Source of the DNA: Rhodoglobus sp. | GTDB taxonomy: Bacteria > Actinomycetota > Actinomycetes > Actinomycetales > Microbacteriaceae | Assembly: GCA_025464445.1 (NCBI GenBank) | Contig: JAODLY010000013.1 | Location: forward strand, 26,188 to 90,187 | Reading direction: 5' to 3' | DNA length: 64,000 nt | Shown: positions 8,686-52,282 of the stretch, one piece after another | How the letters are laid out: each line of letters opens with the position of its first letter | Numbering within the stretch: position 1 is the first letter of the stretch | Notes under the pieces: model-generated | Database searches by the model: none | What the model was told of the DNA's origin: nothing | Seen by the model: the letters and a program-made list of their open reading frames with translations, nothing else | Translations under genes and position numbers: made by a program

Positions 8686-8743
8686 CAGCGCGGCACGGCG
8701 CCGGCGGCCGCACGGCGCCGGTGCCGGTGCCGCCTCGCCCTCT

Positions 8744-8843
8744 CGCGCCTTTCGAAAATTCAGGACTTTGGCAAGTAACAGCCCCGTTGTGTGCTCGAAA
8801 CGCGGGGATTCATCCGGAAAGTCCTGAATTTTCGAAGGGCGCG
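8744..8843. repeat. 100-bp palindromic unit E1 of the TTTCGGAAATTCAGGACTT repeat family
   Basis: The left arm CGCGCCTTTCGAAAATTCAGGACTTT (8744-8769) and right arm AAAGTCCTGAATTTTCGAAGGGCGCG (8818-8843) are reverse complements with 1 mismatch in 26. An internal CCCCG...CGGGG hairpin is present. The same core motif recurs at 49715-49813 and 50786-50880. Confidence 0.85.
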
Positions 8844-8873
8844 TCGCTGCGGCAGCTCTGCGGGCCTCGGCCC

Positions 8874-8948
8874 AAAACGCAGGAGATGCGTACCGTGGTC
8901 GTCGAAAACGACGGGAACAGCCCGTGCGAGGGCGATCTCCTGCGTTTT
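8874..8948. promoter_or_regulatory. perfect 14-bp inverted repeat AAAACGCAGGAGAT / ATCTCCTGCGTTTT (47-nt spacer) upstream of fabD; candidate operator or leader structure
   Basis: Read directly from the sequence at 8874-8887 and 8935-8948. A nested CGTCG-AAAA-CGACG hairpin lies at about 8900-8913. The repeat is 100-175 nt upstream of the fabD start. Confidence 0.35.
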
Positions 8949-9049
8949 CGTCGGGATGCCCGTGCCTTTGAACGCATCGCACAACGATTCGAGCCGTTCT
9001 TGGGATGTCCGCCCCAGCGCGGCACGCGAATCGTTGGCAGACTAGAGCG

Positions 9050-13343: not shown

Positions 13344-13380
13344 ATCCAGGCCTTCATGATCCAGGCCTTCATGATCCAGG
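13344..13380. repeat. 15-bp tandem repeat ATCCAGGCCTTCATG, 2.5 copies
   Basis: Read directly from the sequence. It lies 50-86 nt upstream of the arsR ATG. The last partial copy is part of an imperfect long inverted repeat (13371-13393 against 13446-13469). Confidence 0.85.
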
Positions 13381-13475
13381 AGAGGGTGTTGCCGGTGTGG
13401 AGATTGTGGCGGGATCCCCGAACATCGGCCACTGCACACCCGAGGGCAACACACCCTCCTGGATGATGAAAGCCG

Positions 13476-26575: not shown

Positions 26576-26614
26576 ACGAACGGGTTCGCGATCCGTCCGC
26601 CCTACCAAGACCCC
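26576..26614 (+). pseudogene. degenerate tRNA-Met 3'-half copy in inverted orientation
   Basis: The plus strand reads ACGGGTTCGCGATCCGTCCGCCCTACCAAGACCCC, against ACGGGTTCAAGTCCCGTCCGCCCTACCAAGACCCC for the real tRNA plus trailer. Positions 26593-26614 are the perfect reverse complement of 26647-26668. Confidence 0.55.
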
Positions 26615-26653
26615 TGGCAGGCGCTGGTGCGATGTATCGGGACCTTGGGGTCT

Positions 26654-26730
26654 TGGTAGGGCGGACGGGACTTGAACCCGTGACCGACGGATTATGAGTC
26701 CGCTGCTCTAACCAGCTGAGCTACCGCCCC
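26654..26730 (-). tRNA. tRNA-Met (anticodon CAT; elongator-like, though a lysidine-modified Ile2 cannot be excluded)
   Basis: The minus strand reads GGGGCGGTAGCTCAGCTGGTTAGAGCAGCGGACTCATAATCCGTCGGTCACGGGTTCAAGTCCCGTCCGCCCTACCA. It is 77 nt and forms a full cloverleaf with CCA encoded. The anticodon stem lacks the three G-C pairs typical of initiator tRNA. Confidence 0.93.
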
Positions 26731-48831: not shown

Positions 48832-48980
48832 ACGGCGTCTTCGTCGAGCCTGCGGTTGATGATCGCCTGGTTGTGGTGGTCAGGAATCTCGCAGAAGTCG
48901 CCGTCGCATACTGCCGCGTCGGCGTCGCCGAACGGGACGAGCTTCACGATCTCGATGGGCATCGTGGCTGCGCTGGTCAT
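48828..48980 (-). CDS. possible small protein (50 aa) translationally coupled to the DsbA-like gene
   Basis: Hand translation gives MTSAATMPIEIVKLVPFGDADAAVCDGDFCEIPDHHNQAIINRRLDEDAV. The ATG overlaps the upstream TGA (ATGA), and GC3 is high. The ORF is below the track's length cut-off. Confidence 0.3.
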   Translation of the reverse strand: MTSAATMPIEIVKLVPFGDADAAVCDGDFCEIPDHHNQAIINRRLDEDAV

Positions 48981-49645
48981 GACACTGCTTCTTTCTGCGC
49001 CGCCTCGTGCTCGGCGGCCACTTGTGTTAGCACGTTAGCGAACGTTGCCGCCTCCTGAGCCCCTGACACCCCGTACTTGCCGTCGATCACGAAGAATGGG
49101 ACGCCCTGGATGCCGTACTCCTGGGCGAGGGCTACATCCGCCTTGACGTCTGCCAGGAACCGATGGCTCTCGAGCGCCTCCGTCACCTCGGCGCGTTCGT
49201 AGCCGAGCTCGACAGCTATCTCGACGAGATCCGGGATGCGCCCGACGTGCTCGCCGTTGATGAAGTAGGCCTTGAGCAGCCGCTCCTTCATCTCCAACTG
49301 GCGACCCTTGCTCTTCGCGAAATGGATGAGCTCGTGCGAGATCACCGTGTTCGTCTGGTGCACGTGGTCGTAGTCGTAGTCCAGGCCGACGCTCTTGGCG
49401 ATTCCGGTCACCCGTTCGAGCATGGGGAGCACCTGCTCGAGCTGCATGCCTTTGCGTTGCGCGAGGTACTCGGCGGGCGTGCCGTCGAAGTCGACGGGGG
49501 TGTCTGGCGCGAGTTCGAAGGAGTGGTACTCGACCTCGACCGGCACACGGGAGAGACCGGCTCCGGCCTCGAACTTGCGTTTGCCGATGTAGCACCACGG
49601 GCACTGCACGTCCGACCAGATGTCTACCTTGATGGGTTCAGTCAC
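48977..49645 (-). CDS. DsbA-family (FrnE-like) thiol:disulfide oxidoreductase
   Basis: The sequence IKVDIWSDVQCPWCYIGKRKF carries the CPWC active site. I prefer the GTG at 49645 (VTEPIKVDIW...). The ORF is open to a GTG at 49669. Confidence 0.82.
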   Translation of the reverse strand: MTEPIKVDIWSDVQCPWCYIGKRKFEAGAGLSRVPVEVEYHSFELAPDTPVDFDGTPAEYLAQRKGMQLEQVLPMLERVTGIAKSVGLDYDYDHVHQTNTVISHELIHFAKSKGRQLEMKERLLKAYFINGEHVGRIPDLVEIAVELGYERAEVTEALESHRFLADVKADVALAQEYGIQGVPFFVIDGKYGVSGAQEAATFANVLTQVAAEHEAAQKEAVS

Positions 49646-49684
49646 GTAGAACCCAACACGCCGCGGCACCCCGTATTCCCTGAC

Positions 49685-49701
49685 GCGTCAACTACGCCCC
49701 G
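49685..49701. repeat. 17-bp direct repeat, left copy (GCGTCAACTACGCCCCG)
   Basis: It is identical to 50890-50906 and lies just upstream of the DsbA-like gene. Confidence 0.9.
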
Positions 49702-49714
49702 CGGCCCCTCCCTT

Positions 49715-49813
49715 TTTCGGAAATTCAGGACTTGGCCGTCGATGAGACACGGCGCGCCGCGTCCCTCCGCGGCGCGGCGCGAACAATGTGCCGTAACTCC
49801 TGAATTTCCGAAA
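49715..49813. repeat. 99-bp palindromic unit E2 of the TTTCGGAAATTCAGGACTT family
   Basis: The arms are TTTCGGAAATTCAGGACTT (49715-49733) and AACTCCTGAATTTCCGAAA (49795-49813), with 1 mismatch. An internal GCGCCGCG...CGCGGCGC hairpin is present. The unit overlaps the last ~30 codons and the stop of the DUF559 gene. Confidence 0.85.
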
Positions 49814-50681
49814 CGTGGCCGCCACGGGCAGCGATCGCGATCGCTATCCCGCGCTGCACGTCAGGCCATTCGGTGAACACCATCCGTGCGGTTGGCCGCA
49901 TGGCGTGATATCCCGCAAGGGTGATGGCCAGGTCTTTACGCCTGTCCTGCTCGAAGCGGTCGACGTGGTACTCCCTGCCATCGACCTCGAGCCCCACAAC
50001 GTCGTCAACGACAAGGTCGATGCGCTCCAGCTCACCGACGGGAACCTGGCTGACGACAGTGTGGCCGGCCAACCTGAGGCGGGTGCGCGCGAGACTCTCG
50101 GGGAGACTCTCGCACTCGGCATCCACCCAGCGCTCGGTGAAGCGCCTGCAGGCTGGAACGCGCCGCATGAGCTCGTGGAAGTCGAAGGCGTCCATGATGC
50201 CCCCGTGCAAGGCCCAGTCGAGTGCGGCGACAGCGGTTTCGAGCGACTCGTCGGTGATCACCCTGACGAACGCATCCGCGAGGGCGACCGACATATTGTC
50301 ACCACGGTCGCCCAGCTCCGGCGAGTCCCAGTGCAGCTCGACCCCCGCCTTCGTGTAGTTGCCGATCCTCCGGTGGCGGTTCCACTGGTTGCGCAGTCGT
50401 GCCGAGTTCTCGGGGACAGAAACATGCAGTGGATGCGGCCCCAACACCCAGCCGCCCGCCCGTTCGATTGCCGAGACCCCGGTCAGCCGCCCTCCCACCC
50501 GCACTGCGCGCACCCGCGGGTCGGCGGCGGGCAGGGTGGTGTACCAGCCCTGCCGCGCCCGGCTAACCCCACCCGACCGCACGGCGCGAGTCAGGTCAAG
50601 GTCGCGAGCCCCGCGGGCGACGAGCTGGCGTTTCTGGGCCATTCCACCCAGGGCATCCACCCTTGAAGCGATGTCCGTCAT
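49725..50681 (-). CDS. AbiEi_4-like wHTH plus DUF559 (Vsr-like / PD-(D/E)xK fold) domain protein
   Basis: The N-terminus reads GGMAQKRQLVARGARDLDLTRAVRSGGVSRARQGWYT. The C-terminus reads IDLVVDDVVGLEVDGREYHVDRFEQDRRKDLAITLAGYHAMR, which is DUF559-like. Confidence 0.8.
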   Translation of the reverse strand: MTDIASRVDALGGMAQKRQLVARGARDLDLTRAVRSGGVSRARQGWYTTLPAADPRVRAVRVGGRLTGVSAIERAGGWVLGPHPLHVSVPENSARLRNQWNRHRRIGNYTKAGVELHWDSPELGDRGDNMSVALADAFVRVITDESLETAVAALDWALHGGIMDAFDFHELMRRVPACRRFTERWVDAECESLPESLARTRLRLAGHTVVSQVPVGELERIDLVVDDVVGLEVDGREYHVDRFEQDRRKDLAITLAGYHAMRPTARMVFTEWPDVQRGIAIAIAARGGHVSEIQELRHIVRAAPRRDAARRVSSTAKS

Positions 50682-50785
50682 AACGGCACTCTGGGCGACT
50701 CTCGCAGCCCTCTGCGGCGCCCGCGACCTTCGCTGGATAACCGGCGCCAGAGCAGCCCTGTGTAGGCCAGGCCGAGCGCGCCGCC

Positions 50786-50880
50786 TTTCGGAAATTCAGG
50801 AACTCAGGCCGCACGCCTGCGCGTCGCCCGCCGGGTTACTGGGGGCGAGCGTGTGGGCGTTCGGAAAGTCCTGAATTTCC
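50786..50880. repeat. 95-bp palindromic unit E3 of the TTTCGGAAATTCAGGACTT family
   Basis: The arms are TTTCGGAAATTCAGGAACT (50786-50804) and AAAGTCCTGAATTTCC (50865-50880). The unit lies 105-200 nt upstream of the DUF559 start and is followed by a G9 run. Confidence 0.8.
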
Positions 50881-50889
50881 AGGGGGGGG

Positions 50890-50906
50890 GCGTCAACTAC
50901 GCCCCG
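50890..50906. repeat. 17-bp direct repeat, right copy (GCGTCAACTACGCCCCG), containing the glyQS stop codon
   Basis: It is identical to 49685-49701. On the minus strand it reads CGGGGCGTAGTTGACGC, which is ...G-A-stop of glyQS plus 7 nt. Confidence 0.9.
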
Positions 50907-52282
50907 ATGAGCTGCCCGGCGAGGTAGGCGCGCAGGCCCTCGAGCGGGATGCGCTCCTGCGCCATCGTGTCGCGCTCGCGCACCGTCACGGCGTTGTCGT
51001 CGAGCGAGTCGAAGTCGATGGTGACGCAGAACGGCGTGCCGATCTCGTCCTGTCGGCGGTAGCGGCGGCCGATCGCGCCGGCGTCGTCGAAGTCGACGTT
51101 CCAGAGCTTGCGCAGGTCGGCGGCGACTTCCTTCGCGAGGGGCGAGAGCTGGTCGTTACGGGACAGCGGGAGCACTGCCACTTTGATCGGCGAGAGCCTG
51201 CGGTCGAGCCGCAGCACGGTGCGCTTGTCGACCCCGCCCTTGGCGTTGGGGGCCTCATCCTCGGCGTACGCATCGAGAAGGAACGCCATGAGCGCACGGG
51301 TGAGGCCGAACGCGGGCTCGATGACGTAAGGGACCCAGCGCTCGTCTTTTGTCTGGTCGAAGTACGACAGGTCGGTCCCGGAGGCCTCGGAGTGGGTCTT
51401 GAGGTCGAAGTCGGTGCGGTTCGCGACGCCCATGAGCTCGCCCCACTCGCTGCCCGCGAACCGGAACCGGTACTCGATGTCGACCGTGCGCTTGGAGTAG
51501 TGCGACAGTTTTTCGGCGGGATGCTCGTAGAAGCGCAGGTTCTCGGGGTCGATACCGAGGTCGACGTACCAGCGCATCGACTCGTCTATCCAGTACTGGT
51601 GCCACTCCTCGTCGGTGCCGGGCTCGACGAAGAATTCCATCTCCATCTGCTCGAACTCGCGGGTGCGGAAGATGAAGTTGCCCGGCGTGATCTCGTTGCG
51701 GAAGCTCTTGCCGACCTGGCCGATGCCGAACGGGGGCTTGAGGCGGGATGCCCCGAGCACGTTCGCGAAGTTCACGAAGATGCCCTGGGCGGTTTCCGGC
51801 CGCAGGTAGTGCAGCCCCTCCTCGTTGTCGACGGGACCGAGGTAGGTCTTCAGCAGGCCCGAGAAGTTCTGCGGCTCGGTCCAGGCGCCGGGCTGGCCGG
51901 TGTCCGGGTCCTTGATGTCGGCGAGGCCGTTGGCCGGCGGGTGGCCGTGCTTCTCCTCGTACTGCTCGAGCAGGTGGTCGGCCCGGTAGCGCTTGTGGGT
52001 GTGCAGGGATTCGACGAGCGGGTCGGAGAACACCTCGACGTGGCCGGAGGCCTCCCACACGCGGCGCGGCAGGATGACGGCCGAGTCGATTCCGACGACA
52101 TCGTCGCGACCCTGCACGATGGTCTGCCACCACTGCTTCTTGATGTTCTCTTTGAGCGCGGTGCCGAGCGGCCCGTAGTCCCAGGCGGAGCGCGAACCGC
52201 CGTAGATCTCTCCCGACTGGAAGACGAAACCCCTGCGCTTGGCGAGGTTGATGACGGCGTCGAGATTGCTGGGGGTTGCCAC
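50897..52282 (-). CDS. glyQS: glycine--tRNA ligase (class II, homodimeric GlyQS type)
   Basis: The sequence reads [40 protein letters not shown]...[25 protein letters not shown]. The GTG at 52282 lies 5 nt after GGAGCG and gives 461 aa. The track extension to 52684 was trimmed. Confidence 0.95.

Follow-up and report, generated by a model that had tools for sequence, protein, structure and literature searches.

The stretch of DNA analyzed here (hereafter, the window) comprises 64,000 nucleotides of a Rhodoglobus sp. metagenome-assembled genome (MAG). Between glyQS, the gene for glycyl-tRNA synthetase (GlyRS), and the gene for a DsbA-like oxidoreductase (dsbA), it carries a 1.19-kb segment with a single gene, the product of which combines an AbiEi-like winged helix-turn-helix (wHTH) module with a Vsr/DUF559-type nuclease domain of the PD-(D/E)xK fold. 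An earlier note, made from the letters alone, had read this segment as a recent mobile insertion marked by a 17-nt target duplication and inverted termini. Our analysis leads to a different view: the cassette is very probably an old, conserved chromosomal locus rather than a recent insertion, and its termini are two members of a dispersed family of repeats resembling repetitive extragenic palindromic (REP) sequences. The features of the locus are the following:

48977-49669, minus strand: dsbA, the downstream neighbour
49685-49701, plus strand: left copy of the direct repeat GCGTCAACTACGCCCCG, upstream of dsbA
49715-49813, no strand: hairpin unit L, arms TTTCGGAAATTCAGGACTT and AACTCCTGAATTTCCGAAA, 87-nt class, overlapping the 3' end of the nuclease open reading frame (ORF)
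49725-50681, minus strand: coding sequence of the wHTH (AbiEi-like) and Vsr/DUF559-type PD-(D/E)xK nuclease, 318 aa, the sole gene inside the segment
50756-50766, minus strand: conserved leader motif located between unit R and the start codon; CCTACACAGGG here, CTCCACAG as the consensus
50786-50883, no strand: hairpin unit R, arms TTCGGAAATTCAGGA (50787-50801) and TCCTGAATTTCC (50869-50880), 87-nt class, 5' of the nuclease gene and 11 nt past the glyQS stop
50890-50906, plus strand: right copy of GCGTCAACTACGCCCCG, holding the end of the glyQS reading frame with its TAG stop, plus the next 7 nt
50897-52282, minus strand: glyQS, the upstream neighbour, start inferred from 461-aa orthologues

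The nuclease gene and its product

The wHTH-nuclease is encoded by the only ORF of the segment, in which we, like the earlier reader, found no transposase, integrase or recombinase; nor is there a gene for AbiEii (DUF1814) at the locus, where the neighbours are glyQS and dsbA. The window protein itself gave only a sub-threshold Pfam match, to the MTES_1575 nuclease, and none in NCBIfam or PADLOC. An AlphaFold model built on 27 homologues (predicted local distance difference test score, pLDDT, 82.6) was searched with Foldseek, which matched the N-terminal ~190 aa to the AbiEi antitoxin 6y8q (E = 3e-5) and the C-terminal ~100 aa to the DUF559/Vsr-like nucleases 3hrl and 3r3p. Across family members, Pfam recognized MTES_1575 in 25 of 27, AbiEi_4 in 7 and DUF559 in 5, and these family-wide domains bear out the domain call made from the single sequence.

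In an alignment with 26 homologues, residues D222, H239, D246, K249, E195 and Q212 do not vary and E232 hardly does; the Salinibacterium clade has Asn in place of D234. D222, D/N234, H239 and D246 are spaced like D196, N208, H213 and D222 of the homing endonuclease I-Bth0305I, in which the second of these positions is naturally Asn (PMC3239194). Judging from these residues, the active site looks intact, as the earlier note had suggested checking. The ratio of nonsynonymous to synonymous divergence (dN/dS) is 0.11-0.15 for the nuclease gene (vs 0.03-0.10 for dsbA), and by this measure the gene is under purifying selection.

The conserved part of the protein corresponds to residues ~1-285, beyond which the reading frame runs on through unit L for ~33 codons. 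Of 120 close homologues, 99 have arm-derived peptides (GNSG, PEFP or EIQE) in the C-terminal tail, the earliest indication that gene and hairpin stay together across genera. The wider family comprises 1629 clusters at 50% identity (E <= 1e-3). No phage homologues of the nuclease were found and plasmids yielded one weak, pseudogene-like match from Tsukamurella; with unit matches in viral contigs attributable to chance, a phage or plasmid origin was rejected. One homologue, in MAG CAVWNJ010000005 (L090 3279-4128), is split into two overlapping pieces in different frames by a probable frameshift, either in a pseudogene or through an assembly error.

A dispersed family of hairpin units and its probable link to the nuclease

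The outermost 15 nt of the segment (49719-49733 and 50866-50880) are complementary at 100%, so that the inverted ends described previously do exist, but they are not the two ends of one element. The segment has four occurrences of the motif GGAAATTCAGGA, and four arms rather than two mean that each 'terminus' is a complete hairpin unit of ~100 bp. The fallback offered in the earlier note, a gene lying between two units akin to miniature inverted-repeat transposable elements (MITEs), thus described the anatomy correctly. Two more occurrences of the motif (8754-8833) belong to a third unit, A, located 41 kb from the segment with no nuclease gene nearby. Units L, R and A have folding z-scores of -5.0 to -7.8 compared with shuffles (plus strand), with unit R folding at -80.5 kcal/mol (z = -7.6). 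Further copies of the termini, which the note had proposed to look for, thus exist in the window itself, with dozens more in related Microbacteriaceae.

Scanning of species-representative genomes for AAATTCAGGA-N45-75-TCCTGAATTT returned at least 118 stretches. Among the matches listed, ~75 are high-GC Microbacteriaceae stretches, from Salinibacterium, Rhodoglobus, Parafrigoribacterium, Conyzicola, Glaciihabitans, Lacisediminihabitans, Homoserinimonas, Mycetocola, Marisediminicola, Galbitalea and a Cryobacterium MAG, with 21 loci carrying the nuclease gene and ~54 carrying solo units. The low-GC matches were rejected as members of the family, being chance inverted repeats save for an unrelated repeat of Kiritimatiellia. 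The latter, found in MAGs L007, L011, L024, L028, L030 and L093, is a MITE-like family of its own (GGGTTTGAAATTCAGGAAAC ... GTTTCCTGAATTTCAAATGCCG, ~80-92 nt) with a conserved AT-rich interior, and its 10-mer core is the same as that of the Microbacteriaceae units.

The units are ~95-110 bp long, with conserved arms of 14-16 nt (YTTCGGAAATTCAGGA) and largely unrelated interiors. Their lengths cluster at 75-77, 86-89 and 97 nt, that is, in steps of ~10.5-11 nt, or about one helical turn. The 4-7 positions inside the arms are paired in 60-71% of the units (vs 41-43% expected), and structure in the interiors is slightly above that of shuffles (mean z -1.0 vs -0.06 for control segments). Across 132 units, covariation over the arms and 8 nt on either side reached 0.279, compared with 0.136 in shuffles, none of 500 of which attained that value, and at most 0.121 in slid registers; because the 10-mer core had been pre-selected as complementary, the free test is confined to the outer and inner columns. 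The arm variants AAACTCAGGA, AAACGCAGGA, AAATGCAGGA, AAATGAAGGA and AAACGAAGGA each come with the exact partner on the opposite arm.

With gene calls from a crude heuristic based on GC content at third codon positions (GC3), the units are mostly intergenic, 49 lying between same-direction genes, 20 between convergent and 11 between divergent ones. In L073, L098, L117 and L012, units are duplicated in tandem or clustered as mosaics in which arm types alternate, and one Conyzicola MAG holds related full-length copies on separate contigs (L012, L058). Rfam gave no match in the window at gathering thresholds and nothing meaningful on the units at E <= 1, no canonical terminator or consensus promoter was found in the units, and G-T and A-C mismatches on the co-directional strand are balanced (96 vs 79), so that nothing points to selection at the RNA level; on these grounds, an RNA element or terminator was rejected. 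The possibility that solo units are deletion derivatives, in which case the outer arms of the cassette should resemble each other more closely than do the two arms of a single unit, was also dropped, given that this holds in the window and fails in L005. Short-read contigs often end at or beside units (L125, L127, L001, L218 and many contigs of 1-3 kb), and the hairpin repeats appear to break assemblies.

The nuclease genes flanked by the units fall into three clades, each with its own locus and arm sequences:

Clade 1: glyQS-dsbA locus, 18 genomes of several genera; bracketing arms TTCGGAAATTCAGGA
Clade 2: after a riboflavin operon and a major facilitator superfamily (MFS) transporter gene, in Mycetocola sp. 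CAN_C7 and two further assemblies; arms CTCCAAATTCAGGAG or CAAATTCAGCA
Clade 3: dapD-gltA locus, in a Lacisediminihabitans MAG, Protaetiibacter intestinalis and a Micrococcales MAG; arms CCCAAATGCAGGAG or CCAGAAATGCAGGAG

All three clades are bracketed by units on both sides, and, as each is faithful to its locus across genera, inheritance looks vertical. Clade 2 (35% identity; DUF559 passes the Pfam cut-off in its Mycetocola paralogue) has a conserved unit interior, GACACGCCG...CGGCGTGTC, and two to four tandem half-sites upstream of the nuclease gene, arrayed with a 19-nt period beside the 5' unit (L096 6778-6852; L216 3768-3797; L217 3777-3810). Clade 3, ~39-41% identical to clade 2, has one unit upstream and one or two downstream, and solo units with its AAATGCAGGAG arms are found in other spacers. 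The bracketing units of clade 1 almost always belong to the 86-88-nt class and those of clades 2 and 3 to the 75-77-nt class. Across the three clades, almost every locus has the motif CTCCACAG 25-45 nt past the 5' unit, and in many cases a second TCCAC box lies ~25-30 nt further on (leaders of the window, L096, L216, L217, L219, L220 and L222); the motif may be a promoter or operator element. In the tail of protein P0066, tandem arms are translated as a GQGNS repeat, which Pfam scores as Pentapeptide_2.

Units also flank unrelated genes, namely, an alpha/beta hydrolase gene (L162 clade) and glyQS itself (L005), which speaks against a special tie to the nuclease. Bracketing alone is thus not specific, and the decisive observation is the correspondence between clades and arm types. 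With this correspondence in hand, we are fairly confident that the nuclease gene and the units are functionally coupled. The suggestion in the earlier note that the protein recognizes the ends gains comparative support from the three clades with clade-specific arms, direct binding being a matter of inference.

Whereas the units around the nuclease gene are kept across genera, solo units turn over. The solo unit of the window and two further hairpins are the following:

8744-8843, no strand: unit A, a solo hairpin of the 76-nt class with arms TTTCGAAAATTCAGGACTTT, in the spacer that separates the gene for a PucR-like regulator from fabD
8874-8948, no strand: second hairpin of that spacer, its arms of another type, AAAACGCAGGAGAT / ATCTCCTGCGTTTT
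13364-13474, no strand: another long hairpin, CCAGGAG core, formed by GGCCTTCATGATCCAGGAGAGGGTGTTGCC and its complement

The last of these, 111 nt long with 30-nt arms holding GATCCAGGAGAG, is possibly another member of the CAGGAG-core hairpin superfamily to which the units belong. Elsewhere in the window, a tRNA gene (26657-26730, minus strand) is adjoined by an inverted partial copy of itself, forming an inverted repeat of 35 nt, 89% complementary (26580-26681), the right arm of which is the 3' part of the tRNA gene; it may be a relic of a past integration or serve as a terminator.

The PucR-like/fabD spacer (window 8686-9049) was surveyed in 80 metagenome loci with PucR-like relatives at 85-94% identity (L136-L215). 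Its length varies from 75 nt to 2.3 kb and it hosts at least five arm types of units. About 40 of the 80 loci are empty of units, with spacers of 75-200 nt, and others contain one or two units of varied arm types, with differing types sometimes occupying the same position in genomes 92-93% identical. Between L139 and L140, the flanks of which are 95% identical, an indel of ~163 nt carries a unit, with no convincing target duplication. Together, the presence/absence pattern and this indel indicate that solo units are gained and lost as discrete pieces. In one clade, the spacer consists of a unit, the alpha/beta-hydrolase gene and another unit (L162 3834-4682); the 8-nt duplication GCAAGCGC flanking this arrangement is missing from sister loci and was set aside as chance. 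No nuclease paralogue was found in the ~1-kb unit-flanked segments of this spacer, the cargo being the hydrolase. Other inserted genes, unaccompanied by units, occupy the spacer in L197, L200, L213 and L215.

Could the association be incidental? Under this alternative, the nuclease would be a housekeeping repair or defence protein and the hairpins generic REP-like terminators, insulators or operators that happen to be repeated genome-wide, made and moved by another enzyme or by replication slippage. Besides the units bracketing other genes, it draws on their preference for sites downstream of genes, on the length classes about one helical turn apart, which suggest duplex binding sites, on the conserved leader motif, which points to ordinary transcriptional control, and on the classical role of AbiEi-type domains as autorepressors (PMC7319586). 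However, chance cannot place matched, clade-specific arms on both sides of three clades at three loci across genera, and elsewhere units come and go even between relatives 95% identical. The hairpins also lack canonical terminator features and the strand asymmetry of G-T and A-C mismatches, and autoregulation is compatible with the explanation that we prefer (see below). We therefore regard an unrelated or purely regulatory link as unlikely, although it is the strongest competitor.

Age of the cassette and origin of the 17-nt repeat

The order glyQS, unit, nuclease gene, unit, dsbA was recovered in 18 genomes by tblastn over the fetched loci, with ybaK-like, dus, dGTPase and dnaG genes downstream of dsbA in the first five relatives named below. 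These relatives, mostly MAGs or metagenome contigs, include L002 (91% protein identity), L124, L126, marine actinobacterium PHSC20C1, Glaciihabitans sp. UYNi722, Salinibacterium amurskyense, Salinibacterium sp. G-O1 and NG253, Parafrigoribacterium mesophilum, P. humi, Lacisediminihabitans and several MAGs. Identity of the nuclease protein ranges from 97% down to 52-64% in the cross-genus loci. The 5' unit is at the equivalent position in the 18 genomes, and both bracketing units were found in at least 16 of the 18 cassettes. None of the 18 has an empty glyQS-dsbA site, and the reconstructed empty junction GGGGCGTAGTTGACGCGTCAGGG has no match in metagenomes, the latter being a weak negative from an exact-pattern scan. 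Two of the outcomes that the earlier note had named as telling against mobility were thus observed: the relatives carry the gene at this very position, and the search for empty sites came back without one.

The cassette also has a past distinct from that of its flanks. The 5' unit and leader are only 59-71% identical when the window and L124 are compared with L002 and L126, vs 86-98% for the flanks, and the synonymous divergence (dS) of the window from L126 amounts to 0.89 for the nuclease gene vs 0.31 for dsbA. The end of the divergent tract at the cassette borders, together with the excess of dS, points to allelic replacement at the level of the cassette.

The 17-mer GCGTCAACTACGCCCCG is present in exactly two copies in the window, with no third match at <=2 mismatches. 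As the earlier reader had judged, chance is an improbable source: none of 100 dinucleotide shuffles of the window contained two copies, and both lie on one independently assembled Logan contig of 1437 bp (L001). Their placement was also given correctly. The right copy encodes, on the minus strand, the end of GlyRS (...YLAGQLIGA*), and the left copy precedes dsbA, which starts 16 nt downstream of its end and encodes a protein 100% identical to one named as from a Rhodoglobus sp. MAG. In relatives, the position of the left copy reads CGGGCGGAAGTTGACGC; the dsbA-proximal site is (C)GGGCGGAAGTTGACGCGTCAGGG in L124 and L002 and GGGCAACAAG... in L126, and the bases past the glyQS stop differ among L124, L002 and L126 (CCCGGC, TTCCGCC and CGCC, respectively).

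We aligned the glyQS 3' end of each of 17 genomes with its own dsbA-proximal spacer and with those of the other genomes. The window scored 17 against itself, whereas the other 16 genomes scored 5.5-9, which is the range of the cross-genome comparisons. Only the window stands out, and a target duplication common to all genomes was accordingly rejected. L124, the nearest relative of the window (~96% nucleotide identity), has the same cassette and no perfect 17-mer; because neither L124 nor L002 matches, the perfect repeat arose in the lineage of the window. The 17-nt repeat is, then, a young, lineage-private rearrangement scar and not the footprint of an original insertion. It may have originated by re-insertion of the cassette with a 17-nt staggered duplication or by short-patch conversion between similar sites. 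Taken with the synteny across 18 genomes and the purifying selection on the nuclease gene, the private nature of the repeat argues against the view of the segment as a recent mobile insertion, even though other copies of its termini do exist.

An older mobile origin has to be weighed separately. A site-specific selfish cassette, similar to a homing endonuclease gene or Tn7, would use the glyQS 3' end as a safe harbour, make a 17-bp staggered cut and have swept to fixation in the clade, with the solo units being MITE-like derivatives mobilized in trans. The perfect duplication containing the glyQS stop fits this account. In relatives, the junctions keep the functional half (GGGGCGTAG at glyQS, TTGACGC before dsbA) with the other half decayed, a pattern expected of an older, decayed duplication; however, the junction similarity is weak, at 6-7 of 10 positions (p ~0.01, with the genomes not independent), and the flanking duplication is absent from the 16 other genomes. 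The cassette-sized divergent tract with its threefold dS excess in L126, the likeness of the C-terminal domain to I-Bth0305I and the occurrence of cassettes at three loci in different clades could likewise be accommodated. Against these stand the lack of an empty site in the 18 genomes or the metagenome pattern scan, the locus-faithful, vertical-looking clades, strong purifying selection without any trace of the cyclic decay typical of homing genes, and the lack of phage homologues, with a single weak plasmid match. On balance, we consider a selfish cassette improbable, slightly more so than an incidental link between gene and repeats.

Finally, that the 17-mer and the 'insertion' are biologically unlinked artefacts of assembly or chance, as might be suspected from the MAG source and from short contigs breaking at units (L125 and L127 end just upstream of dsbA), is hardly credible given the shuffles, the independent Logan contig spanning both copies and the recurrence of the cassette architecture in isolate genomes.

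A repeat family with a proposed cognate nuclease, and comparison with known systems

The explanation that we favour, with moderate confidence, is a family of REP-like repeats, or of their paired form, REPINs (REP doublets forming hairpins), accompanied by a cognate, vertically inherited wHTH-nuclease. This would be an analogue, built on a PD-(D/E)xK enzyme, of the partnership between REPINs and REP-associated tyrosine transposases (RAYTs). In such an arrangement, the wHTH module would recognize the arm sequence of the cognate units. Binding at the bracketing units would probably autoregulate the nuclease gene, in the manner of AbiEi proteins, which bind inverted repeats in their own promoters (PMC7319586) and offer a plausible parallel for both arm recognition and autoregulation. 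We infer unit binding by the nuclease protein from sequence comparison and from this analogy, and the length classes with a helical period would fit a protein that bridges two half-sites on duplex DNA. More speculatively, the nuclease domain might nick or cut at or near the bound units, and repair of the breaks might drive local duplication, loss and allelic replacement, with occasional spread of units. That the nuclease drives the dynamics of the units is a tentative proposal, and cleavage and mobilization of the units by it are speculative.

Several considerations weigh against this reading. We know of no strand-transfer activity of a PD-(D/E)xK nuclease, so that any mechanism of copying would be indirect. 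The interiors of units within a genome are mostly unrelated, unlike those of young REPIN populations. The length classes fit better with binding of duplex DNA than with recognition of a hairpin, and the units could be purely regulatory or architectural sites. In addition, the counts of loci with and without the nuclease gene come from the matches listed (at least 118 stretches).

In its strongest form, our explanation would amount to a second, RAYT-independent REPIN-like symbiosis, in which AbiEi-wHTH/Vsr-like nucleases of Microbacteriaceae would each recognize a cognate hairpin repeat and, by cutting at it, maintain, diversify and spread the repeat population and drive cassette exchange at the sites so marked; we regard this as possible rather than probable. 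Perhaps it extends to the multi-copy DUF559 genes of Actinomycetota. To our knowledge, the only dedicated single-copy enzymes so far paired with REP/REPIN sequences are HUH (RAYT) transposases, found mainly in Proteobacteria, and full-text searches of the literature brought up no account of an association between DUF559/AbiEi-nucleases and such repeats. If correct, the proposal would imply that long-lived repeat-enzyme partnerships evolved more than once, provide a testable function for the widespread, uncharacterized AbiEi_4-DUF559 proteins, and explain the recurrent assembly breaks and hypervariable spacers in Microbacteriaceae genomes. The three arm types also supply natural pairs of a DNA-binding module and a ~15-nt site for studies of specificity.

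Among known proteins, the nuclease resembles I-Bth0305I and other Vsr-like homing endonucleases of the EDxHD type (PMC3239194; PDB 3r3p) in having an N-terminal HTH-type DNA-binding region and a C-terminal Vsr-like domain, and in the spacing of the active-site Asp, Asn/Asp, His and Asp. It differs in its AbiEi-like N-terminal module and in residing outside introns, inteins and phages; unlike homing endonucleases, it occupies fixed chromosomal loci and is uniformly present in the clade under purifying selection, with no empty allele found. The N-terminal ~190 aa share the two-domain fold of AbiEi from the type IV AbiE toxin-antitoxin system (6y8q), from which the present system is set apart by the fusion to a nuclease and the lack of an AbiEii (DUF1814) partner and of a PADLOC match. 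The domain architecture is that of the multi-copy AbiEi_4-DUF559 proteins of Actinomycetota, among which the clades described here are locus-faithful groups of orthologues with bracketing cognate hairpins.

As for the repeats, they are similar to enterobacterial REP sequences and bacterial interspersed mosaic elements (BIMEs) and to Correia-type MITEs in being short intergenic hairpins located mostly downstream of genes; as in REP/BIME families, they occasionally form tandem or mosaic clusters (L117, L098, L073) and their presence varies between relatives. They belong to a different sequence family with no Rfam match, arms of 14-16 nt and a free interior, and solo units have no clear target-site duplication. 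Compared with insertion of a transposon or MITE, the cassette has no recurrent flanking duplication, empty site or transposase, whereas empty sites of solo units do exist.

The closest parallel is the RAYT-REPIN system, in which a locus-faithful, vertical-looking gene flanked by its own dispersed type of repeat has served to tie RAYTs to REPINs (Bertels & Rainey, PMC3116915, PMC5581495). Here, too, a locus-faithful, vertical-looking gene under purifying selection, with one copy in the 64-kb window, is bracketed by cognate palindromic repeats, further copies of which are scattered through intergenic DNA as inverted doublets with a spacer; and distinct enzyme clades pair with distinct repeat sequences (three clades, three arm types). 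The differences are that the enzyme is a wHTH protein with a PD-(D/E)xK (Vsr/DUF559) nuclease domain rather than an HUH/Y1 transposase similar to those of IS200/IS605, that the interiors of the units are mostly unconserved, with lengths in classes ~10.5 nt apart, and that the hosts are Actinomycetota. Thus, in lacking an HUH transposase, the nuclease and its repeats qualify as an analogue of RAYT-REPIN rather than as a member of it.

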